Origin: an uncultured Eubacterium sp.
GTDB taxonomy: Bacteria > Bacillota > Clostridia > Lachnospirales > Lachnospiraceae
Direction: 5' to 3'
DNA length: 64,000 nucleotides
Assembly: GCA_934322085.1 (NCBI GenBank)
Contig: CAKRGF010000010.1
Coordinates: 4,986-68,985 of the forward strand
Shown here: piece by piece, positions 8,014-44,570 of the stretch
Numbering within the stretch: position 1 is the first letter of the stretch
Layout of the letters: each line of letters starts with the position of its first letter
Position numbers and translations under genes: made by a program
The notes under the pieces: generated by a model
What the model saw: only the letters and a program-made list of their open reading frames with translations
Told to the model about the DNA's origin: nothing
Databases searched by the model: none

Positions 8014-8761
8014 TCAAAAAGACCCAAAGGATTTTCTTTATGAGGGCGAGCGGCTGGATGATTTGCAGCGGGATGGAATGTACATTATTCAGAATCCGAA
8101 GTGGTTCTGCTTTGGCATGGATGCCGTCCTTTTATCCGCATACGCGAAGGTAAAGGAAGGGGAAAAATGTCTGGACCTTGGCTGTGGCAACGGTATTATT
8201 CCGCTGTTGCTTTCCGGGCGTACCAAGGGAAGTTCCTTTACCGGGCTGGAACTGCAAAAAGATATTGCCGAAATGGCAAAGCGCAGTGTGGCTTATAACG
8301 AAAAAGAAGATAAAGTGCATATTGTGCAGGGTGATATCAGGGAAGCCACTTCAATTTTTGAAGCTGCTTCCTTTGACGTTGTTACGAGCAATCCGCCGTA
8401 TTTGAATCAATCCAATGGCCGTGTCAGCGAGGCGTCACACAAGGCGATTGCCAGACATGAACTTTTCTGCACATTTGAAGATGTGGTAAAAGCGGCAGCA
8501 AAGCTTCTGCGGCCCGGCGGGCGTTTTTATCTGGTACACAGACCATTTCGCTTAGCGGAAATTATTTCCTGTATGGTGCAGTACAAATTGGAACCAAAGC
8601 GGATGAGACTGGTTTATCCGTATGTTGATAAAGAACCAAATATGGTGTTGATTGAGGGAGTTCGAGGAGGGAATCGTCAATTGACGGTCGAAAAGCCGTT
8701 AATTGCATACGCTAATACGAATCAATACACAGAGGAAGTGAGGCGGATGTATTATGATTAG
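8006..8761 (+). CDS. tRNA1(Val) (adenine37-N6)-methyltransferase-like (YabB/TrmN6 family)
   Basis: 251 aa; SAM motif LDLGCGNG and NPPY catalytic motif; overlaps upstream gene by 8 nt. Confidence 0.8.
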   Translation: MSNQKDPKDFLYEGERLDDLQRDGMYIIQNPKWFCFGMDAVLLSAYAKVKEGEKCLDLGCGNGIIPLLLSGRTKGSSFTGLELQKDIAEMAKRSVAYNEKEDKVHIVQGDIREATSIFEAASFDVVTSNPPYLNQSNGRVSEASHKAIARHELFCTFEDVVKAAAKLLRPGGRFYLVHRPFRLAEIISCMVQYKLEPKRMRLVYPYVDKEPNMVLIEGVRGGNRQLTVEKPLIAYANTNQYTEEVRRMYYD

Positions 8762-9617
8762 AGAAGAAAAGACAGGAATGTTATATTTGTGTGCGACGCC
8801 GATTGGCAATCTGGAGGATGTTACACTTCGTGTTCTCCGCATTTTAAAGGAAGCCGATGTGGTGGCGGCCGAAGATACAAGACAGAGCATCAAGCTTTTG
8901 AATCATTATGAAATTAAGACACCGCTTGTCAGTTACCATGAACATAATAAATATGAAAAGACGCCAGTTTTAGTACAGCGCATGTTGAAAGGTGAGACGA
9001 TTGCACTTGTTACGGATGCCGGCACACCGGCAATTTCGGACCCTGGTGAGGATTTGGTTAGGGCGTGCTATGAAGCGGGAATTCCGGTTACATCTCTTCC
9101 GGGACCGGCAGCAGTAATTACAGCGCTGACCCTATCAGGCATGCCTGCCCGCCGGTTTACATTTGAAGGATTTCTGCCGGTGGATAAAAAGGAAAGAAAA
9201 GAAGTGTTAGACCGTCTTGCCCAAACGACCTGTACGACAATTTTTTACGAAGCACCGCATCGTCTGAAAAAAACACTTGCACTGTTTTGTGAACTTTTGG
9301 GCGAAAACAACCGGATTGCCATCTGCAAAGAACTGACAAAAAAACATGAGACGGCACTTCATTTTACTTTAGGTGAGGCTGTGGCGTATTATGAAGCGAA
9401 TGAGCCAAAAGGTGAGTTTGTGCTTGTACTGGAAGGGAAAAATGCGGAAGATATGAACCGCGCCAAACAGGAGAAGTGGCAGGAAATGCCGCTCTCCAAA
9501 CATATGAAAATCTATGAAGATAAAGGACTTAGCCGCAAGGAAGCCATGAAGGCAGTGGCGAAAGACCGGGGCGTATCCAAACGGGAGATATATGCGAAAT
9601 TATTGGAAGATGAGTAG
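8754..9617 (+). CDS. rsmI: 16S rRNA (cytidine1402-2'-O)-methyltransferase
   Basis: 287 aa; N-terminal LYLCATPIGNLEDVTLR and TDAGTPAISDPG motifs of RsmI/YabC. Confidence 0.9.
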   Translation: MIREEKTGMLYLCATPIGNLEDVTLRVLRILKEADVVAAEDTRQSIKLLNHYEIKTPLVSYHEHNKYEKTPVLVQRMLKGETIALVTDAGTPAISDPGEDLVRACYEAGIPVTSLPGPAAVITALTLSGMPARRFTFEGFLPVDKKERKEVLDRLAQTTCTTIFYEAPHRLKKTLALFCELLGENNRIAICKELTKKHETALHFTLGEAVAYYEANEPKGEFVLVLEGKNAEDMNRAKQEKWQEMPLSKHMKIYEDKGLSRKEAMKAVAKDRGVSKREIYAKLLEDE

Positions 9618-9665
9618 AGGGCGAAATTTATTGGGGGGAGTTTATTGGCGGAAAGTTGGTCATAA

Positions 9666-9913
9666 GTTGACCGGATTTTGAAAAATCGCAAATACGGTCA
9701 ACCATTTTATAGACATAAGGTGACTGAAAACCCATTTTGTGTTAAATAGGTCAACCAAATAGTCTTAAACGAATGACTGTATTTGCAATTATGTGAGTTA
9801 AGGTCAACAAATACATTTCAAAAGTTGACTCAATTTAGAAAAAAACAGATATAAGTCAACGAAAGAGTAAAAATTGGTTGACCGCAGGAGAAGTTTTTCT
9901 AAATCAAGTCAAC
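9666..9913. repeat. phased array of five GTTGAC-N25-GTCAAC units (copy A)
   Basis: Half-sites lie at 9666, 9697, 9719 (GGTGAC), 9750, 9772 (AATGAC), 9803, 9824, 9855, 9877 and 9908. Spacing alternates 31/22 bp. The array is homologous to 12368-12615. Confidence 0.85.
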
Positions 9914-9981
9914 ATGATGGTTATTATGTAAGAAATCTATTTTCCCATTACCACTTTAATTCTTCTAACAAGGCTTATTAA

Positions 9982-10256
9982 CTAAAATTTCATCTTCTTC
10001 TGAAACAAGTCTGCAATAATCTGAGCCGTCTCGCTCATCTCCAAATCATCGGATTTGATACACAAGTCATAATTATTTGCATTGCCCCAGTCAGTTTTAG
10101 TAAAATGTCTGCAGTGAATTACTCCGTCATGGTGGAGCAGATAATCCGGTATTTTGGGCTGGCTGGGTGTTAATCCGGTATCTTTGACACTTGATACAAG
10201 AGCTTTTTAAACCATCAGGTGATCGGACATCAAAAGGTAGTGAAGTGTTTTTTCAT
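9982..10256 (-). pseudogene. decayed remnant of a cytidylate-kinase-like family (AAA) gene
   Basis: The minus strand opens with MKKHFTTF* and then shifts frame. The terminal frame reads ...FTKTDWGNANNYDLCIKSDDLEMSETAQIIADLFQKKMKF*, like the C-terminus of cytidylate kinase-like family proteins. No intact ORF of 60 aa or more is present. Confidence 0.4.
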
Positions 10257-10399
10257 AATAACCTCCATAATTAGAAACCTAATCGAATGTGCACCATGAG
10301 AAACAAAAAGTCAATAGGAATTATTTTGAAAACGGAAACTTTCATTGTTGCCCGGACGCAAGTGTGGTATAGTTATGCTCAAAGAGAGGTGTGAAAAAT

Positions 10400-10714
10400 A
10401 TGGCATCAAGTAAAGATTATTTACAGTTTATATTAGAACAGTTATCGGATTTAGAAGAAATTACTTACCGCGCCATGATGGGTGAATATATTCTTTATTA
10501 TCGTGGCAAAATTGTAGGTGGAATTTATGATGACAGACTACTTGTAAAATCGGTAAAATCAGCGATATCTTATATGCCGGAGGCTGCTTATGAATTGCCT
10601 TATGAGGGCGCAAAAGAAATGTTATTTGTGGACAATGTTGACGATAAAGAGTTTTTGGCAGGACTTTTTCGTGCGATGTATGATGAATTGCCGGCACCGA
10701 AAAAGAAAAAGTAG
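10400..10714 (+). CDS. TfoX N-terminal domain family protein
   Basis: About 104 aa; pattern YLQFILEQL...ITYRAMMGEYILYYRGKIVGGIYDDRLLVK resembles TfoX_N; start may be GTG 10391. Confidence 0.65.
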   Translation: MASSKDYLQFILEQLSDLEEITYRAMMGEYILYYRGKIVGGIYDDRLLVKSVKSAISYMPEAAYELPYEGAKEMLFVDNVDDKEFLAGLFRAMYDELPAPKKKK

Positions 10715-10736
10715 ATTATTTAGGAGGACTTACAAC

Positions 10737-11285
10737 ATGCTATACATTATGCGCCACGGAAAAACCGATTGGAATGCATTGCACAAACTTCAGGGAAGAA
10801 CGGACATCCCATTAAATGACGAAGGAAGATTAATGGCATCCAAAGCACACGAGGAATATAAGTCGTTGAATATCGATGTATGTTATTGTTCTCCGCTGAT
10901 TCGGGCAGTGGAGACGGCGCAGATTGTGCTGAAAAACAGGGGAATTCCAATTATAACAGATGAACGGCTGGTAGAGATGAGCTTTGGTGATTATGAGGGA
11001 ATTGAAAATAGTTTTAAAATTCCGGATTGTCCAATTAACCTTATCTTTCACAAACCGCAGGAATACATAGAATCAATTGGTGGGGCGGAAACATTTGCAG
11101 AGCTTTTTGCGAGAACAGGTTCCTTTCTGAAGGAAGTAATAGAACCTCAATTGCAGGAAGGAAAGGATGTTCTTATTGTGGGACATGGCGCGATGAATTC
11201 CAGTATTATATGTCAGGTTAAGAATAAGCCAATCGAGGAGTTTTGGAGTGCGGGGCTTGAACAGTGTAAGATTTTACAATTGTAA
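10737..11285 (+). CDS. histidine phosphatase (phosphoglycerate mutase) family protein
   Basis: Has the RHG catalytic motif (MLYIMRHGKTDWN) and a downstream VGHGA motif. ATG 10737 has a taggagga RBS. The ORF-track start at 10590 overlaps the TfoX gene. Confidence 0.85.
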   Translation: MLYIMRHGKTDWNALHKLQGRTDIPLNDEGRLMASKAHEEYKSLNIDVCYCSPLIRAVETAQIVLKNRGIPIITDERLVEMSFGDYEGIENSFKIPDCPINLIFHKPQEYIESIGGAETFAELFARTGSFLKEVIEPQLQEGKDVLIVGHGAMNSSIICQVKNKPIEEFWSAGLEQCKILQL

Positions 11286-11402
11286 ATTGAGAGGAACCGG
11301 GGAGAAGGAATTAAAAGCTGACAATGTGGTTAGTCTATGCTAACTTTGAACTGACAGAAAAGAGTGGGATTATCATTCGAATAAGATACTGGAGGAAGAG
11401 CA

Positions 11403-12332
11403 ATGAAAAAGTTATTTTTTGAAACCGAAAAAGATGGGTTTTATGGAACTTATTATGAAAATCCCAAAGGTTCAGACTGTGCGGTTATTGGATTGTTTGG
11501 AGATGACCCCAATGATTATATGGCGAAATGCGGGACAAAATGGCTTCATAAAAATGGTGTCAATGTCCTTTGTATGTCGCCGGGAAAGAAAAATTACAGC
11601 CATGTAAATTTCCCGCTCGAACGTATTGAGACGGCAATCCAGTGGCTGAAAAATAAAGGAAATCAAAAAATCGGAATTATGGGAATGAGTACAGCGGGTA
11701 TGGATGCTCTTGTTGCAGCTTCTTTCTTTTCGGATATTACGCTGACATTTGCGCTTACTCCTAGTGATTTTGTATGGCAGGGATTTGAACAGGGAGAAAA
11801 AGATGGATGCAAGGAATGGCCGGTCCCGGGAGCGTCCACTCTTTCATGGAAGGGAGAGCCCCTTGCTTATATGCCATTTGTATATAAGCATCCGGTATAC
11901 TGGCAGAAAATTCAGGAAGAAACAAAAGGTTCCGGTGATATTGAACGCAGCACCTGCCTGTTTATTGATTCTGAAAATGCAAGAGAACATACCGAAGAGG
12001 AAATGATTCCGGTTGAGAATATAAAGGGAAGACTGTTTCTTGTAGGAGCCGAGGATGATTCCTTCTGGGAAACAGGAAAATACATCCGCCGTATGGATGA
12101 GCGGTTAAAAGAGCGCCCGCATACCTGTGAGTATGTGCCACTCGTGTATGAACACGGAACTCACTTTGTACTGCCGGAATCCCTGCTTCGCAAGGCTTTG
12201 CCGGTGGGACTTAAATTTGTGATGCGATTTATTTTCAAAGCGGCAAAAGAATATCCAAATGAGTGTGAAAAAACGCGAAAAGATATTGACAGAAGACTTT
12301 CTTCTGCCCTAAAAGAGTGGCGGGAAGAGTAG
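11403..12332 (+). CDS. alpha/beta hydrolase, BAAT/acyl-CoA thioester hydrolase C-terminal-like
   Basis: 309 aa; nucleophile-elbow-like GMSTAG, overall resemblance to BAAT_C hydrolases. Confidence 0.5.
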   Translation: MKKLFFETEKDGFYGTYYENPKGSDCAVIGLFGDDPNDYMAKCGTKWLHKNGVNVLCMSPGKKNYSHVNFPLERIETAIQWLKNKGNQKIGIMGMSTAGMDALVAASFFSDITLTFALTPSDFVWQGFEQGEKDGCKEWPVPGASTLSWKGEPLAYMPFVYKHPVYWQKIQEETKGSGDIERSTCLFIDSENAREHTEEEMIPVENIKGRLFLVGAEDDSFWETGKYIRRMDERLKERPHTCEYVPLVYEHGTHFVLPESLLRKALPVGLKFVMRFIFKAAKEYPNECEKTRKDIDRRLSSALKEWREE

Positions 12333-12367
12333 ATTATGAAACTTTTGCAAGGAGATATTTGCAGTTA

Positions 12368-12615
12368 GTTGACCTGATTTGGGAAAATAGTAAATTCAGT
12401 CAACCACTTTATAGATAAAAGTTGACTTAAAAATTGCTTTTTGCCAAATAGGTCATCAAAAGTGACTAAAGTAAATGACTGTATTTAAGATAATGCAAAT
12501 TTAGATCAACAAATATATTGTAAAAGTTGACTTAATTAGAGAAAAAGTAGAAAAAAGTCAAATAGAAGCCGGATTTTGGTTGACCGTTGTTGTGATTTTA
12601 ATAAAACAGGTCAAC
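12368..12615. repeat. phased array of five GTTGAC-N25-GTCAAC units (copy B)
   Basis: Half-sites lie at 12368, 12399, 12421, 12452, 12474, 12505, 12526, 12557, 12579 and 12610. Each is exactly 2702 bp from its counterpart in copy A. Confidence 0.85.
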
Positions 12616-12673
12616 ACAGTGTTTCCGTTTCTTTTTTTATCATACGACGGTGCAGCCAAATTACATAATACAT

Positions 12674-12709
12674 AAAAAAAGACGCCCGAAGTCTGGGAAA
12701 ACTTCGGGC
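12674..12709 (-). terminator. rho-independent terminator of abrB-like gene
   Basis: gcccgaagt-loop-acttcgggc stem; on the minus strand it is followed by UUUUUUU. Confidence 0.75.
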
Positions 12710-12730
12710 AAACACTAAAGGGATATATGA

Positions 12731-12991
12731 TTAAATTAAACCAGCAAGCTTTGATAATTCACGGATTGATTCTTTGGAAACTAATTTTCCTTTGTACTCA
12801 ATCAAATCCTCTTCAGAACCAGTAAAAATATCCTGTTTCTGTCTTTCACATTTTCTTAAAATAATTTTGTCATCTTCAGTATATATTTCCAATAATTCGC
12901 GGTCTTTAAATCCTAAAGACTTACGAAGTTCTTTTGGCAGAGTAATACGTCCGACTGCATCTAACTGTCTTGCAATACCTGTTTCTGTCAT
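12731..12991 (-). CDS. abrB: AbrB/SpoVT-family transition-state regulator
   Basis: Swapped-hairpin motif GIARQLDAVGRITLPKELRKSLG. ATG 12991 is preceded by an aaaggag RBS. The gene is convergent with rsmI, as in B. subtilis. Confidence 0.85.
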   Translation of the reverse strand: MTETGIARQLDAVGRITLPKELRKSLGFKDRELLEIYTEDDKIILRKCERQKQDIFTGSEEDLIEYKGKLVSKESIRELSKLAGLI

Positions 12992-13029: not shown

Positions 13030-13069
13030 ACTATAGTACGTTTTTGACATTTTGTCAAGTGATTCGACG
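13030..13069 (-). promoter_or_regulatory. candidate sigma-A promoter of abrB with Spo0A-box-like elements
   Basis: The minus strand reads cGTCGAAtcacTTGACA-17 nt-TATAGT. The spacer contains TGTCAAA, one mismatch from the 0A box TGNCGAA. Confidence 0.45.
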
Positions 13070-13214
13070 ATTAAAAGAGTATAAAAAAATAATGAAAAAG
13101 AATAGACCTTTTTTATGACACACGGATGCATATAATAATAAGAAAAGGATGCTTTATTTTTTGTCCTAAAAGTGATAAAATGAAAATGATTAATTTGTGA
13201 AAGGAGTGTGTTTC

Positions 13215-14120
13215 ATGAAAAAGAGGAAAAAGGGATTATGGATTCTTGGTTTTATGTGTGCGATGATATGCGGTATCGTGTTGTCGAACAGTAAAAGTCA
13301 GGCAAAGACAATCATTTATCCAACCGTAGCAAGCGGGAAACTGGTCAAGGAAAGTAATCATTGTGTGATTGATTATTCCAATACAGCAGACGGATATGTG
13401 ATGGCTAAGTTTAAAAAAGCACTGGGCCCTACGTTAAAATGCGTTGTTACAACAGGGGGACAGGCGTTGAATGATGGTTACAAATATACACTTTCTGTAA
13501 ATAAATATCAGGTTATTCCGTTAACTGAGGGAAATACAACTTATACGATTTACCTTCTTTATGAAGTTGGTGGACGCTATGCCATGGAGATGACCCTGAA
13601 AGTAAATGTTAAGATGACGGACCAGTTTGGACCGTATCTGCGGCCGAATCAGTTTGTGAATTATACCAAAAGCACGAAAGTTGTAAAAAAAGCAGCCTCG
13701 ATTACAAAAAGTTGTAAAAACGATTTGGCAAAGGTAAAAAAGGTATACAACTATGTTATTAAAAATTATAAATATGACAAAAAACTTGCCAAGACAGTAA
13801 AGCCTGGTTATGTGCCGAATTTGAATAAGATTTACAAGAAGAAAAAAGGAATCTGTTTTGATTATGCGGCAGTAATGACTGCGATGCTGCGAAGTCAGGG
13901 AGTTCCGACAAAACTAATTGTAGGTTATACCGGGAATGCGTATCATGCATGGATAAACGTGTATTCCAAGAAAAAAGGACGCATTTCCAAAATGATTTAT
14001 TTTAATGGTAAGAAATGGAAACTGATGGACCCTACATTTGCTTCAACCAGTAAATCAAGTAAGTCCATTATGAAATACATAGGAAATGGTAGAAATTACA
14101 AAGAAAAATTGAGTTACTAA
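13215..14120 (+). CDS. secreted transglutaminase-like (cysteine protease fold) protein
   Basis: Has a signal peptide and the transglutaminase-core motif GICFDYAAVMTAMLRSQGVPTKLIVGY...AYHAWINVY. ATG 13215 follows an aaaggag RBS. Confidence 0.75.
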   Translation: MKKRKKGLWILGFMCAMICGIVLSNSKSQAKTIIYPTVASGKLVKESNHCVIDYSNTADGYVMAKFKKALGPTLKCVVTTGGQALNDGYKYTLSVNKYQVIPLTEGNTTYTIYLLYEVGGRYAMEMTLKVNVKMTDQFGPYLRPNQFVNYTKSTKVVKKAASITKSCKNDLAKVKKVYNYVIKNYKYDKKLAKTVKPGYVPNLNKIYKKKKGICFDYAAVMTAMLRSQGVPTKLIVGYTGNAYHAWINVYSKKKGRISKMIYFNGKKWKLMDPTFASTSKSSKSIMKYIGNGRNYKEKLSY

Positions 14121-14135
14121 TCAGGGGAGTGTGTC

Positions 14136-15182
14136 ATGAGTAAGCAAACAGTAAGTAATGAGTATGTTTCTGCTTTTTGTCTGGAAATGTCGCTTTTACT
14201 GCATGCCGGCATTGGAATCGAAGACGGATTGTATCTTTTGATTGAGGACGAAAAGGACAAAAAAAGCAAAAAAATGCTAGAGCAGCTAGCGGATTTGGTG
14301 ACGGATGGAAGACCATTTTCCGAAGCGGTACGAGAGGCTGGTACGTTTCCGAAGTATGTTGGCGATATGATTGAAACTGGTGAGGAGACAGGGCGATTAG
14401 AGCAGTCCTTTCAGGCACTGGCAGATTATTACGACAGGCAGCAGCAATTGATGTCGCAGGTTCGCAGTGCTCTTCTGTATCCGTTCATATTGATGATTTT
14501 GATGTTAGTAATTTTAGTTGTGCTGCTTGTTAAGGTACTTCCGATTTTCAATCAGGTCTATGAGCAGCTTGGCGGTACGATGGGCGGCACGGCGAAACTT
14601 TTACTGCGGTTTGGTGACTGGCTTGGAAGTATCATGCCGGTATTGTGCGGTATCATTTTTGCCATTGTTTTGGTGGCAGCAGTGATTGCTTGCAGCAAGA
14701 GGGCAAGAGGCTTTTTCGTGAAGTTGTATAAAAAAGTTTTTGGCGGACACGGAATTGTGCGCCGGATGGGTGAAGCAAGATTTGCGTCAGCGATGGCGAT
14801 GGGAATGATGAGTGGATTAAATACCGAAGATGCATTCCGTACGGCGATGCTTTTTCAGGATGTAAATCAAAAGACGAAGAAGCGTTATGAGAAATGTCTT
14901 GAGATGCTGGAAGTGGGCGAACCGATGGCGAAGTCCTTCCGTGAAAATGAAGTGTTGGAAGCGTCATTTTGCCGGATATTAGATTTGGGTGCCAAAAGTG
15001 GTACATCCGATACGGCGATGGCAGAAATTTCACGGCGTATGGACGACAGAGTGCAGTTGGAAATTGCACGAAAAGTTGGTAGGATTGAGCCTACGATTGT
15101 CATTATTACCTCCATTCTCGTAGGCATTGTTTTGATAACCGTAATGCTGCCGTTGATTCATATCATGTCTTCAATTGGATAG
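14136..15182 (+). CDS. type II secretion system F (GspF/PilC/ComGB) family platform protein
   Basis: 348 aa; two T2SSF-like cytoplasmic repeats separated by TM helices. Confidence 0.8.
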   Translation: MSKQTVSNEYVSAFCLEMSLLLHAGIGIEDGLYLLIEDEKDKKSKKMLEQLADLVTDGRPFSEAVREAGTFPKYVGDMIETGEETGRLEQSFQALADYYDRQQQLMSQVRSALLYPFILMILMLVILVVLLVKVLPIFNQVYEQLGGTMGGTAKLLLRFGDWLGSIMPVLCGIIFAIVLVAAVIACSKRARGFFVKLYKKVFGGHGIVRRMGEARFASAMAMGMMSGLNTEDAFRTAMLFQDVNQKTKKRYEKCLEMLEVGEPMAKSFRENEVLEASFCRILDLGAKSGTSDTAMAEISRRMDDRVQLEIARKVGRIEPTIVIITSILVGIVLITVMLPLIHIMSSIG

Positions 15183-15187
15183 GATGG

Positions 15188-15520
15188 ATGAAAATGAAGA
15201 AACAGAGAAGTTTTCTAATCATAAAAATTGTATTACTGATAGCGGTGATTGGCGGTCTGCTTTATGCGATGAATGCTGGGGCGGCAAAATTGAATCAGGG
15301 GCAGGAGGCAGAGAGCATGAAACAGCTTGAAAACTCCATTCGCAAGGCAACGATGACCTGCTATGCGACAGAAGGCGTATATCCGCCTACCCTTGAATAT
15401 TTAAAGAAAAATTATGGAATCCAGATTGATGAAAGCCGTTTTACCGTCTTTTATGAAGTATTTGCCAAAAATTTGATGCCGGAAATTACAGTAATGGAAA
15501 ATCAGGAGCGGGTCGATTAG
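15188..15520 (+). CDS. small N-terminally anchored protein, possible non-canonical pilin-like subunit
   Basis: 110 aa; basic N-terminus then KKQRS-FLIIKIVLLIAVIGG hydrophobic helix; operon position between platform and ATPase. Confidence 0.45.
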   Translation: MKMKKQRSFLIIKIVLLIAVIGGLLYAMNAGAAKLNQGQEAESMKQLENSIRKATMTCYATEGVYPPTLEYLKKNYGIQIDESRFTVFYEVFAKNLMPEITVMENQERVD

Positions 15521-15522
15521 CA

Positions 15523-16035
15523 ATGAAGAGAAGCAGCCAGAAACATAGTATTGAAAATGTATTTGTTCTTGTGTTGTTTGCCATTTTCGCCATGACCGTA
15601 GTGGCAGTTTTAGCACTGGGAGCAAATCAGTATAAAAGCTTGGTTGAGCGTGATAATAATGCGTACAATAAAAGAATTATCACGTCTTATGTGTCTGCCC
15701 AGATTCGCGGTTACGACAGGACGGATGCTGTGGAAGTAGGCGGATTTGCTTCGCCAGGTGCGCAAGATGAGGTAAATACGCTGCATCTTTTGGAGAAAAT
15801 CGATGGCATCCGGTATGATTTGAAAATTTATTATTATCAGGGTAAGGTGTATGAGTTGTTTGCCGCCGAGGATGCTGAAATGAAACCAGAGGATGGTGTG
15901 GCGATTATGGATGCGAAAGATTTGCATTTTGAAAAGAAAGGAAGTCTCATACGAATTACATCAAAAGATAGTGAAGGCCGACAGAATGAGGCAACCGTTT
16001 CTCTGCGAAGTGAGGAAAGCGGGGTGGCATCGTGA
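15523..16035 (+). CDS. small N-terminally anchored protein (DUF4860-like), possible minor pilin-like subunit
   Basis: 170 aa; QKHS-IENVFVLVLFAIFAMTVV helix; 2-nt gap to upstream gene. Confidence 0.45.
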   Translation: MKRSSQKHSIENVFVLVLFAIFAMTVVAVLALGANQYKSLVERDNNAYNKRIITSYVSAQIRGYDRTDAVEVGGFASPGAQDEVNTLHLLEKIDGIRYDLKIYYYQGKVYELFAAEDAEMKPEDGVAIMDAKDLHFEKKGSLIRITSKDSEGRQNEATVSLRSEESGVAS

Positions 16036-16433
16036 ATTATGAAAGAAGCAAAGCTCCATTAGCGTTGATGGAGCAGATTATTATGATTTTAGTGTTTGCG
16101 CTGGCGGCAGCAGTGTGTTTGCAGGCATTTGCCTATGCAAACGGGTTGTCTAGACGCGGTGAAAAAGAAAATATTGCGGCAGCCCATGCGCAGGAAGTAA
16201 TAGAGATGTGCAAAGCGTGTGCCGGCGACTGGCAGAAAGTAGTATGGGAAATGCCCGGTCAGATTGAGGGAGATACTTTGAAAATTCCTTTTGAGCAGGA
16301 CCACATGACGGTTCAAATAACAAAGACGGATGCAAATGAGTATTTAATAAATGCAAAAGTTATTGTTTTTGATGAAGATAAGAAAGAGATTTATCATATT
16401 GCGGCAGCGTGGCAGAGAGGGGGCACATCATGA
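16032..16433 (+). CDS. small N-terminally anchored protein with prepilin-like LALME motif
   Basis: 133 aa; SKAP-LALMEQIIMILVFALAAAV resembles a class III signal (Glu at +5); 4-nt overlap with neighbours. Confidence 0.45.
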   Translation: MNYERSKAPLALMEQIIMILVFALAAAVCLQAFAYANGLSRRGEKENIAAAHAQEVIEMCKACAGDWQKVVWEMPGQIEGDTLKIPFEQDHMTVQITKTDANEYLINAKVIVFDEDKKEIYHIAAAWQRGGTS

Positions 16434-16843
16434 AAAAACGAAAGCTCTCATTCACAAGTGTAGGCGGCAGTTCAATTCTGACGATTTTTGCCGTATTATG
16501 TTTTCTAGTTTTTGCTCTTTTGTCGCTGTCGACGGCAAAAGCTAACTATAACCTGTCAGAAAAATCAGTAAAAGCAGTAAGTAATTACTATACAGCAGAT
16601 ACGAAAGCAGAAGAGATATATTCACAGATTCGGGCAGGAAATATGCCGGATGGTGTGAAAAAAAAAGAAAGTTCTTATACTTACACGTGTGCGATTGATG
16701 ATAAGCAAAAACTGTTTGTTGAAATCAAAAAACAAAAAGGGAAATTTCATGTAGTAAAGTGGGAGAAGCAGTATACCGGTGAGTGGAAACCGGATGATAC
16801 CATCAATGTTTGGGATGGAATGGAACAAATGCTTCCAGACTAA
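16430..16843 (+). CDS. small N-terminally anchored protein, possible pilin-like subunit
   Basis: 137 aa from ATG 16430 (ATGA overlap with upstream stop); KRKLS-FTSVGGSSILTIFAVLCFLVFALL. Confidence 0.4.
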   Translation: MKKRKLSFTSVGGSSILTIFAVLCFLVFALLSLSTAKANYNLSEKSVKAVSNYYTADTKAEEIYSQIRAGNMPDGVKKKESSYTYTCAIDDKQKLFVEIKKQKGKFHVVKWEKQYTGEWKPDDTINVWDGMEQMLPD

Positions 16844-16860
16844 AGAAAGAGAGAAAAGAT

Positions 16861-17928
16861 ATGGAACGTTTAGTGGAAATATTAAGAAAAGCAGTCTCTG
16901 ATGGGGCATCGGATATTTTTATTGTTGCCGGTGGTGCATTGAGTTATAAGGTGGATGGTGAGATTCATCCAATGGAAGCTTCGGCAGGACGTCTGATGCC
17001 GGATGATACAAAGGTGCTTTTAGATGAAATTTATGAGTGTGCCCGCCGGGAGAAAACTCATTTTTTAAAAGAAGGAGACGATGATTTTTCCTTTGCGATT
17101 GAGGATTTGGCGAGATTTCGTGTGAATTCATATTTTCAGCGTGGTTCACAGGCGGCGGTTATTCGTGTTGTTTCGTTCCAGATTCCGGATTATAAGGAAT
17201 TAGGGATTCCGGAAGAGGTAATTGCCCTGTCGAAATTACAGCATGGCATGATTATTATTTCAGGAACGGCTGGAAGCGGAAAATCGACGACACAGGCGTG
17301 TATCATTGATGCGATTAACAAAGAGCGTGAGGCGCATATTATTACGCTGGAGGATCCGATTGAATATTTGCACCGCAATCAGAAATCATTAATCAGCCAG
17401 CGTGAAATTGCGATTGATACCGAGAATTATCTGACCGGGCTTCGCGCGTGCCTGCGTCAGGCACCGGATGTTATTCTGTTAGGGGAAATGCGTGATGCGG
17501 AAACGATTCGTACGGCGATGACCGCAGCAGAAACCGGACATCTCGTTATTGCAACACTGCACACCAAGGGTGCGGTAAATACGATCGACCGAATTGTAGA
17601 TTCCTTCCCGGCAGACCAGCAGGACCAGATTAAAATCCAGCTCTCGCTTGTGTTAGACTGCATTGTTTCCCAGCAGTTACTGCAGAGAGAAGGCGGCGGC
17701 ATGATTCCGGCAGTGGAGATTATGAAAATTGTGCCAGCGATTCAGAACATGATTCGAGACAGTAAAAACTATCAGATTGATAATGTCATTCAGACGTCTG
17801 GAGAACAGGGAATGGTTTCGATGGACCAGTACATTTTGAAACTGTACCGGAAAGGTGAAATCAGCGAAGAAACCGCACTTTTATCCGCCATTAATCCAGA
17901 GCAGTTAAAGAGAAAATTAAGCCGGTAA
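16861..17928 (+). CDS. pilT: PilT-family type IV pilus (twitching/retraction-type) ATPase
   Basis: Has Walker A GTAGSGKSTT, ITLEDPIEYLH, Walker B VILLGEMRD, a His box and the C-terminal PAIQNMIRDSKNYQI motif like PilT AIRNLIRE. The ATG is at 16861. Confidence 0.85.
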   Translation: MERLVEILRKAVSDGASDIFIVAGGALSYKVDGEIHPMEASAGRLMPDDTKVLLDEIYECARREKTHFLKEGDDDFSFAIEDLARFRVNSYFQRGSQAAVIRVVSFQIPDYKELGIPEEVIALSKLQHGMIIISGTAGSGKSTTQACIIDAINKEREAHIITLEDPIEYLHRNQKSLISQREIAIDTENYLTGLRACLRQAPDVILLGEMRDAETIRTAMTAAETGHLVIATLHTKGAVNTIDRIVDSFPADQQDQIKIQLSLVLDCIVSQQLLQREGGGMIPAVEIMKIVPAIQNMIRDSKNYQIDNVIQTSGEQGMVSMDQYILKLYRKGEISEETALLSAINPEQLKRKLSR

Positions 17929-44299: not shown

Positions 44300-44570
44300 A
44301 ATTTCCGTGCAGCCGGGGAGATAGCGGTGCCCTGTACCTGCAATCCGCTATAGCAGGGGTGTTGTCCCATCGAGGGTCTTTTGACGGAGAGCTGCCCAAA
44401 GTAAGTGGCGTTGACACTTGGGTCTTGCGCAACAGGAACTTGTGAACCGTGTCAGGTCAGGAATGAAGCAGCACTAAGCAATCCTTCCTGTGTGACGCGA
44501 GGGTGCCTGAGCCTAGCTAACTGCTTTGGTAACGTCTTCTGATTTTGATTCGACATGGGATGCACGGATT
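44300..44570 (+). ncRNA. ffs: signal recognition particle RNA, large Bacillus-type (scRNA with Alu domain)
   Basis: It aligns closely with B. subtilis scRNA as I remember it. The Alu domain is gccggggagatagcggtgccctgtacctgcaatccgctatagcagggg and domain IV is gtgtcaggtcaggaatgaagcagc. A closing helix tccgtgca/tgcacgga is present. It is located after tadA, as in B. subtilis. Ends are +/-5 nt. Confidence 0.93.

Follow-up and report, generated by a model that had tools for sequence, protein, structure and literature searches.

Two 250-bp direct repeats lie between rsmI and abrB in a stretch of 64,000 nucleotides (hereafter, the window) from an uncultured Eubacterium sp. of the Lachnospiraceae (GenBank assembly GCA_934322085.1, contig CAKRGF010000010.1, positions 4,986 to 68,985). 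Each is an array of five 53-bp units bounded by inverted half-sites, and both belong to a family of interspersed, intergenic repeat arrays that is spread genome-wide and across the Lachnospiraceae. We establish here the anatomy of these arrays, the constraint on their half-sites and spacing, their multi-copy intergenic distribution, their linkage to a gene for a nuclease-like protein, their half-site dialects, and their polymorphism among strains. We hold with moderate confidence that the arrays provide a dimeric DNA-binding protein with phased sites, which would make them an interspersed family resembling the bacterial interspersed mosaic elements (BIMEs), with the nuclease-like protein as the best candidate partner. 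A literature search, which covered the literature incompletely, found no published description of the family, and it is apparently undescribed. The first-pass annotation of this DNA, made from the sequence alone, likewise recognized no described element with this architecture.

Anatomy and conservation of the two arrays

The two arrays occupy the following positions.

9666 to 9913, unstranded: array A (A1), five 53-bp units with half-site pairs at 9666/9697, 9719/9750, 9772/9803, 9824/9855, and 9877/9908
12368 to 12615, unstranded: array B (the counterpart of A3 where a strain has three arrays), five units starting at 12368, 12421, 12474, 12526, and 12579

Array B is paralogous to array A, unit for unit. 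A repeat finder matches 9665 to 9859 with 12367 to 12561 (195 nt, 74% identity) and 9874 to 9914 with 12576 to 12616 (41 nt, 73% identity), the offset between the copies is a constant 2702 bp with zero gaps, and the ungapped identity over 249 nt is 71%. Right outside the arrays, identity drops to 27 to 33%, which is the random level; thus, the repeated stretch is the array alone and nothing more. Unit starts in array A are spaced 53, 53, 52, and 53 bp apart, and the spacing of its half-sites alternates between 31 and 22 bp, with a single 21. The first-pass annotation had reported two five-unit direct-repeat arrays with a 31/22-bp alternation and had put their identity, by eye, at 70 to 75%. 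The measured values (71 to 74%) agree with this description, as does the alternation apart from the one 21-bp step.

The pattern GTTGAC-N25-GTCAAC, with at most one mismatch, has eight matches in the 64 kb, all of them within arrays A and B, compared with 0.10 on average, and never more than 2, in 100 dinucleotide shuffles of the same window. Unit 3 of both arrays (AATGAC...) has at least two mismatches to this pattern. Between the two arrays, hexamer positions are 93% identical and the remaining positions 64% (permutation P < 5e-5). The 33 distinct copies taken from other strains vary in 15 of the 60 half-site columns versus 105 of the 188 other columns. This pattern points to purifying selection on the half-sites in diverged paralogous arrays, and it bears out the earlier claim that hexamers and phasing are kept as the interiors drift. 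The covariation of a stem extension that had also been proposed is seen in single units only and fails across the family. A position weight matrix built from the arrays of other genomes only gives the 10 units of the window scores of 21 to 32 bits, and nothing else in the window reaches 8 bits. Since a matrix from foreign arrays recovers exactly these ten units, the window repeats are true family members. A chance origin of arrays A and B is ruled out by the shuffles, the hexamer permutation test, and the matrix scan.

A family of arrays in the Lachnospiraceae

The pattern TGAC-N25-GTCA-N20-TGAC-N25-GTCA-N20-TGAC, which has 20 specified bases, was scanned against a database of one genome per species (596 Gb), in which it is calculated to occur about once by chance. 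At least 119 stretches carry it, with half-sites and phasing conserved. Among the matches listed, all but three come from Lachnospiraceae or from generically named Clostridiales metagenome-assembled genomes (MAGs), the exceptions being two Bacillus and one Saprospiraceae; the listed hosts include Oribacterium, Butyrivibrio, Coprococcus, Blautia, Acetatifactor, Agathobacter, Dorea, Fusicatenibacter, Faecalicatena, Muricoprocola, and other Lachnospiraceae. Several genomes hold many arrays, and at least 13 stretches with arrays are present in the draft genome of Oribacterium sp. KHPX15. Arrays of gut and rumen Lachnospiraceae have 2 to 11 exact units with a 53-bp period, and steps of 52 or 54 bp are rare.

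Across genomes, the arrays adjoin unrelated genes. None of the 69 arrays with both neighbors called lies within an open reading frame (ORF); the neighbors are codirectional in 49 cases (24 ++ and 25 --), convergent in 14, and divergent in 6. An intrinsic terminator is present between the upstream gene and the array in 34 of 90 cases (~38%), so many arrays are outside the upstream transcript. Contig ends coincide with 34 of 124 arrays. The five-unit module can also be followed from locus to locus. An A3-like module (87% identical) is found at a different locus in Clostridium sp. AF37-5, and accession MT837166.1 (L130) contains a five-unit array, 75% identical to that of the window, flanked by genes for an acetyltransferase and a putative regulator. 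Such A3-like copies at other loci indicate that the five-unit module is itself a dispersed repeat. MT837166.1, the only phage-labeled record with a match, is named “Bacteriophage sp.” (unverified) in GenBank, and it is a fragment of a bacterial chromosome with genes for an acetyltransferase, a methyltransferase, a surface-protein-like ORF, and groES. The family pattern has no match in 2.9 million viral contigs, and the array search of a plasmid collection gave none, which rules out a phage or plasmid element.

The Bacillus matches (L050:7530-8000 and L083:5830-6590) are G+C-rich 53-bp tandem repeats containing TGAC-N25-GTCA, the second of which adjoins another tandem repeat family. No homologue of the nuclease-like gene described below was found near them, and their resemblance to the Lachnospiraceae arrays may be coincidental.

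Half-site architecture and genome dialects

Unit sequences differ almost wholly between arrays, even inside one genome. What is kept is the pair of inverted half-sites of ~12 bp (RWTGACYnAwwT ... AwwTnRGTCAWY), which take the form GTTGACY/RGTCAAC in the species of the window, together with their spacing. The centers of the half-sites are 31 and 22 bp apart; since 53 bp corresponds to five helical turns, all sites of an array are on the same face of the DNA.

Mirrored positions within the units have a mirror-symmetric base composition and no excess of pairing over a control of half-sites from different arrays: positions 14 and 38 are Watson-Crick complementary at a frequency of 0.58 versus 0.48 in the control, further out there is no excess, and across the family no covariation is found beyond the fixed TGAC/GTCA pairs (four base pairs). 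Symmetric composition without excess pairing characterizes a duplex site bound by a dimer, as opposed to a hairpin. Combined with the indifference of the arrays to transcription context and their five-turn period, it argues for a phased duplex-DNA site for a dimeric protein. The two window arrays do fold better than shuffled sequences (z = -6.4 and -3.5), via long-range pairing between units; the fold of a Blautia array (L131) has z = +0.4, and no RNA fold is conserved across arrays. Unit hairpins or a structured RNA are rejected on the missing covariation and the inconsistent fold scores, and with them goes the multi-hairpin RNA that had been suggested for these repeats. A known RNA family is likewise rejected, since the arrays have no Rfam match at gathering thresholds and only noise at an E-value threshold. 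Scans for sigma-70 promoters within units are at background level. The unit interiors are A-rich on the sense strand.

Arrays of one genome resemble each other in the bases next to the TGAC core. In MAG JAFWCK, with six mutually diverged arrays, 94% of the half-sites have G before TGAC and 98% have C after it; in three Oribacterium genomes, G precedes TGAC in 0%, and two further MAGs have the half-site TGACTG. Among array pairs that are not independent of one another, core-adjacent identity is 0.52 within genomes versus 0.41, although other positions are at the unrelated level (0.36 versus 0.35). These comparisons support the concept that each genome has its own half-site dialect, and such genome-specific dialects would imply a trans-acting factor.

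A nuclease-like protein as candidate partner

When all ORFs within 3 kb of arrays were clustered, one family was found to adjoin the arrays directly (median distance, 85 bp). It encodes a protein of ~262 amino acids (aa), and the array is always on its 5′ side. This arrangement is present in 11 loci that were selected by the pattern and in seven of seven homologues that were fetched independently of it, chosen solely for long contigs. The unit sequences of these seven loci differ, as do the upstream neighbors (an rpsI terminator, a prophage lysis module, IS66, and other genes). One lineage only (L131/L134) also has an array 3′ of the gene. The linkage holds among homologues sharing 34 to 75% protein identity; the family has 1978 homologues, and all 13 of those with a source name are of Lachnospiraceae type. 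The gene is usually downstream of rplM-rpsI. The search for another universally linked neighbor gave only rplM/rpsI synteny and common families, e.g., ABC-F. No terminator was found between array and gene in L131, L216, and L217, and in L219 the strand composition of the array is opposite relative to the gene. Examples of the gene, all outside the window, are as follows.

L066:1362-2150, minus strand: nuclease-like gene
L131:6001-6801: nuclease-like gene
L216:3001-3861: nuclease-like gene

The 262-aa protein has no sequence match in Pfam, NCBIfam, or PDB and a single weak match in PHROGs (phrog_21138, function unknown, E = 4.5e-4, with P0101). Its C-terminal half matches the C terminus of PADLOC PDC-S68 (1e-27) and a PD-DExK model. 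Its PADLOC matches are PDC-S68, PDC-S69, and HEAT_CxxC_PD-DEXK, none of which is a type III toxin family. The N-terminal region of the protein is helical, and the C-terminal part is a nuclease domain of the PD-(D/E)xK/Vsr-like kind, with E159, D190 (in PDF), and E205-H206 as invariant residues. An AlphaFold model (pLDDT, the predicted local distance difference test, 84) gave weak Foldseek matches to the PD-(D/E)xK enzymes R2 endonuclease, DrdV, BamHI, and Vsr. The homologue that has diverged furthest (L093, 34% identity) occurs in the genome with the GTGACC dialect, a single suggestive case.

The region upstream of the array and nuclease-like gene (L132:4125-5306, L133:1-5700, and L134:1972-4709) is a repeated landing site for mobile DNA, including a prophage with its integrase at the rpsI 3′ end, a prophage lysis module with a reverse transcriptase like those of diversity-generating retroelements, and IS66.

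Gene content and strain variation between rsmI and abrB

The arrays of the window are accompanied by the following genes and features; the gene content of the enclosed segment matches that given in the first-pass annotation.

8754 to 9617, plus strand: rsmI (TP_methylase), upstream of array A
9940 to 10260, minus strand: decayed cytidylate-kinase-like remnant (Cytidylate_kin2)
10400 to 10714, plus strand: gene for a TfoX_N protein, a cassette missing from some strains
10714 to 10720, unstranded: empty site of A2, between tfoX and the phosphatase gene
10737 to 11285, plus strand: histidine phosphatase gene (His_Phos_1)
11403 to 12332, plus strand: BAAT_C-type hydrolase gene, missing from some strains
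12683 to 12710, minus strand: intrinsic terminator of abrB
12731 to 12991, minus strand: AbrB-type gene, convergent, with a promoter TTGACA-17-TATAGT at 13058 to 13030

Array B sits in the convergent intergenic region between the end of the hydrolase gene and the abrB terminator. No intrinsic terminator was found between rsmI and array A or between the hydrolase gene and array B. Integrase or recombinase genes were not called anywhere from ~6 kb upstream of rsmI to ~7 kb past abrB, and no cas, par, or rep genes are found near the arrays.

Contigs encoding an RsmI identical or at least 97% identical to that of the window display at least seven architectures of the rsmI-abrB interval. In many strains, a segment of ~400 bp between tfoX and the phosphatase gene contains a third array of five units (A2), each of which has its paralogue in A1 and A3. 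The window is without A2 and has an empty site at 10714/10715 with AGATT microhomology at the junction; in other strains, a block with vapBC takes the place of A2. This block (L002:7056-8960, L005, L146, L152, L153, and L159) comprises a vapB/vapC pair (MazE-like and PIN) and a 399-aa protein with no Pfam match. Some strains are missing tfoX or the hydrolase gene, and the cytidylate-kinase-like remnant, an ORF of 82 to 94 aa in other strains, lies in a stretch that is variably deleted. The arrays themselves also vary: A1 is mostly deleted in L155, and A3 has three units instead of five in L139 and L159 through a 106-bp deletion of exactly two units.

Breakpoints cluster near the arrays but mostly fall tens to hundreds of base pairs off their edges, and several variants share a junction located ~25 bp before the phosphatase gene. 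Between rsmI and abrB, the arrays are markers of a region whose gene cassettes differ from strain to strain. The idea that the enclosed genes form an island inserted by means of the arrays thus stands in part: it fits the hypervariability of the interval and the third array of many strains but not the position of most breakpoints, which are close to array edges and not on them. Relatives whose RsmI is at most 64% identical are uninformative on the ancestral state, since in them rsmI is followed by neither an array nor abrB. In the metagenome contigs L167, L170, L173, and L179, the upstream methyltransferase gene is 98 to 99% identical to that of the window and rsmI only 68 to 85%, which reflects either recombination with a boundary at or within rsmI or a chimeric assembly; in L173, the divergent rsmI is followed by unrelated genes.

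In Oribacterium, arrays are carried inside a multi-copy element of ~0.6 kb with a 17-bp terminal inverted repeat (TIR), GTAACAGTTCAGCCGGC, conserved arms, and a terminator-like hairpin arm. Near-identical copies are present at several loci in three genomes, and the element is a vehicle for arrays like a miniature inverted-repeat transposable element (MITE).

L024:5200-5680, L032:1-460, L084:5760-6190, L079, L013, L057, L058, and L108: copies of the MITE-like element of Oribacterium

At both ends, the window arrays are bounded by their own inverted half-sites, and neither a target-site duplication nor a transposase was found at them. Overall, arrays multiply as whole modules and change their number of units.

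Elsewhere in the window, the bacterial large signal recognition particle (SRP) RNA is encoded at 44305 to 44567 on the plus strand (Rfam RF01854, 190.7 bits). Together with holB, PSP1 (yaaT), rsmI, and abrB, it places the window presumably near the replication origin, by analogy with Bacillus subtilis. Downstream of abrB (13197 to 17928) there are a transglutaminase-like gene and a cluster with T2SSF and T2SSE genes, which are of the type IV pilus or competence-like kind and not far from the TfoX_N gene.

Proposed role and alternative explanations

We infer that a protein binds the arrays, that it is the nuclease-like protein, and what binding might do. The arrays would most likely act as double-stranded DNA, with a sequence-specific protein binding the inverted half-sites as a dimer and adjacent dimers lining up in a cooperative nucleoprotein stack of 250 to 600 bp. 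A cooperative protein-binding platform, one of the options in the first-pass annotation, is the best reading of the arrays. The best candidate for the binder is the ~262-aa PD-(D/E)xK/Vsr-like protein, whose gene is directly preceded by an array, and the window arrays would then be “orphan” sites, with the gene for their factor at another place in the genome. Binding could contribute to nucleoid or chromosome organization, to local cleavage or recombination, or to regulation; the second option would explain the variable cassettes. A broader and distinctly more tentative proposal is a two-part system in which a vertically inherited PD-(D/E)xK nuclease-like protein recognizes dozens of phased 53-bp arrays and either organizes the chromosome or makes recombination hot spots that lead to cassette variation of the rsmI-abrB type. 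It would be a Firmicute counterpart of the repetitive extragenic palindromes (REPs) with their REP-associated tyrosine transposases (RAYTs) or of parS/ParB-type families.

Several points weigh against binding by the nuclease-like protein to fixed, phased sites. Its gene is not within the 64-kb window, the protein has no recognizable DNA-recognition domain, and its link to the arrays is by position only; the gene could merely be regulated by whichever factor binds the array. The spacing is not absolutely invariant, as the L219 variant has N26 and a 54-bp period, and with the N25 arrays masked there is a residual excess of TGACY-N-RGTCA pairs at N24 to N26; the strict 53-bp period is partly imposed by the search pattern. 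The dialect comparison, with its non-independent pairs, is supportive and not conclusive.

Alternatively, the arrays could be non-autonomous mobile DNA of a MITE- or BIME-like kind, selfish or in decay and devoid of host function, with half-sites that bind a copying enzyme and persistence through spreading. We regard this as unlikely. The Oribacterium elements with 17-bp TIRs at several loci in three genomes are what it would predict, as are the presence or absence of A2 within the species of the window, the five-unit modules at unrelated loci, and a nuclease gene tied to arrays as the RAYT gene is to REPs (PMC2817692). However, the window copies are old (71 to 74% identity) yet have kept 93% of their hexamer positions without indels, the array-nuclease linkage persists across 34 to 75% protein identity, the window arrays have no detected target-site duplication or transposase, and there are no matches in the 2.9 million viral contigs and none in plasmids. 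Still less probable is a role as recombination sites bounding gene cassettes, integron-like or otherwise site specific, with arrays as the crossover points at which tfoX, the phosphatase/hydrolase pair, vapBC, and further cassettes would come and go. One to three arrays separate the cassettes in the seven or more architectures of a single species, vapBC and the 399-aa block occupy the place of A2, and the junction upstream of the phosphatase gene is recurrent. Nevertheless, most breakpoints are away from array edges, no integrase or recombinase gene is called in the region surveyed around the interval, most arrays elsewhere are single and lie between ordinary genes, and the copies are too diverged (71 to 74%) for efficient homologous exchange.

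We give little credence to an action of the arrays as RNA, whether as a multi-hairpin element of 3′ untranslated regions or as a processed repeat RNA that partners the nuclease in the manner of a type III antitoxin. Repeats directly upstream of a nuclease gene do resemble ToxIN-type loci, the arrays after rsmI and the hydrolase gene are not preceded by a terminator, and both the fold scores of the window arrays (z = -6.4 and -3.5) and the A-rich sense strand of the interiors would be in keeping with a transcript. The folds, however, consist of long-range pairing between units and not of unit hairpins, the L131 array (z = +0.4) does not share them, conservation is mirror-symmetric with no covariation beyond four fixed base pairs, ~38% of the arrays follow a terminator and fourteen lie between convergent genes, the L219 array is reversed in strand composition relative to the nuclease gene, and the PADLOC matches include no type III toxin family. 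Least probable of all, and hardly to be expected, is a locus-specific operator platform for the neighboring AbrB-type regulator, which the first-pass annotation had entertained. Array B adjoins abrB, and the GTCAAC overlapping the abrB -10 element, to which attention had been drawn, does exist, but this hexamer occurs 13 times in the window and the overlap is at chance level. Operators of AbrB would be located in the promoters of genes under its control, whereas array B is beyond the abrB 3′ end and its terminator, and the occurrence of arrays at no fewer than 119 loci beside unrelated genes makes an AbrB operator unlikely.

Significance and comparison with known systems

Lachnospiraceae are among the most abundant bacteria of the human gut and rumen, and the literature search found no described interspersed-repeat system for them. 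The array family offers a testable candidate partner, a conserved protein of unknown function with ~2000 homologues. In practical terms, the arrays break metagenome assemblies (34 of 124 are at contig ends), and their unit number varies among strains and could serve for typing. At rsmI-abrB, they sit in a hot spot of strain-level variation in gene content. The family has a real but unproven potential as a new protein-DNA system.

Among known systems, plasmid centromere and iteron arrays, such as the 43-bp repeats of F sopC, each with an inverted repeat, and R1 parC, are similar in having units that are whole helical turns long, each with an inverted repeat for a dimer, and in forming a phased nucleoprotein stack. 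Those, however, are single-copy and beside par or rep genes, whereas the present family comprises dozens of chromosomal arrays that have no par or rep genes nearby and have no plasmid match. The sites of the chromosome organizers RacA (ram, TGACGCCGGCGTCA) and MatP (matS, GTGACRNYGTCAC) likewise consist of TGAC/GTCA or GTGAC/GTCAC inverted half-sites scattered over a chromosome and are served by a dedicated protein. They are single 13- to 14-bp palindromes with a TGAC-to-GTCA gap of 6 or 3 bp, in contrast to 25 bp in the arrays, and RacA and MatP are from other taxa and have other folds.

Type III toxin-antitoxin loci (ToxIN, CptIN, and TenpIN) have near-identical repeats of ~34 to 45 nt that function at the RNA level with a terminator after them, and they have no orphan arrays elsewhere in the genome. 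Tandem direct repeats directly upstream of a nuclease gene are common to both systems, but array units are diverged, no terminator separates array and gene (L131, L216, and L217), the toxins have another fold, and no toxin gene adjoins the window arrays. As with the attC sites of integrons, the arrays are imperfect inverted-repeat sites of conserved architecture and variable sequence between strain-variable cassettes. An attC, however, is one site of 57 to 141 bp with RYYYAAC/GTTRRRY cores, whereas each 250-bp array comprises five pairs of inverted repeats; the half-site GTTGACY is at odds with GTTRRRY, and no IntI, attI, or neighboring integrase is found. A clustered regularly interspaced short palindromic repeat (CRISPR) array is rejected because the 25-nt and 16-nt intervals are variants of each other, there are no cas genes nearby, and the 53-bp period is too short. 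Membership in the type III toxin-antitoxin, integron, CRISPR, and plasmid centromere classes is therefore excluded, each failing in a defining feature.

The nearest known kind is the REP/BIME system of Proteobacteria with its RAYT. REPs are extragenic, hairpin-forming, and present in more than 100 copies per genome, and the associated gene encodes an IS200/IS605-type tyrosine transposase (PMC2817692). The arrays are similarly extragenic, multi-copy, and composite, with short motifs regularly spaced in alternating orientation (here, 31/22 bp with a 53-bp period), and they have species-specific variants and a single conserved gene of nuclease type that is physically tied to the repeats; protein binding and chromosome organization have been proposed as roles for both. 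Unlike REPs, which are self-complementary hairpin palindromes, array units have only TGAC/GTCA fixed around a 25-nt interior and no hairpin constraint, and the arrays have a fixed 53-bp period and a Firmicutes host. The associated gene is PD-(D/E)xK/Vsr-like instead of a tyrosine transposase of the IS200/IS605 type, and the array is 5′ of it, on both sides in one lineage only, whereas the RAYT gene is flanked by inverted REPs. If the link to the nuclease-like protein is true, the arrays would constitute a second, independently evolved system of a domesticated nuclease plus genome-wide repeats, after REP/RAYT.

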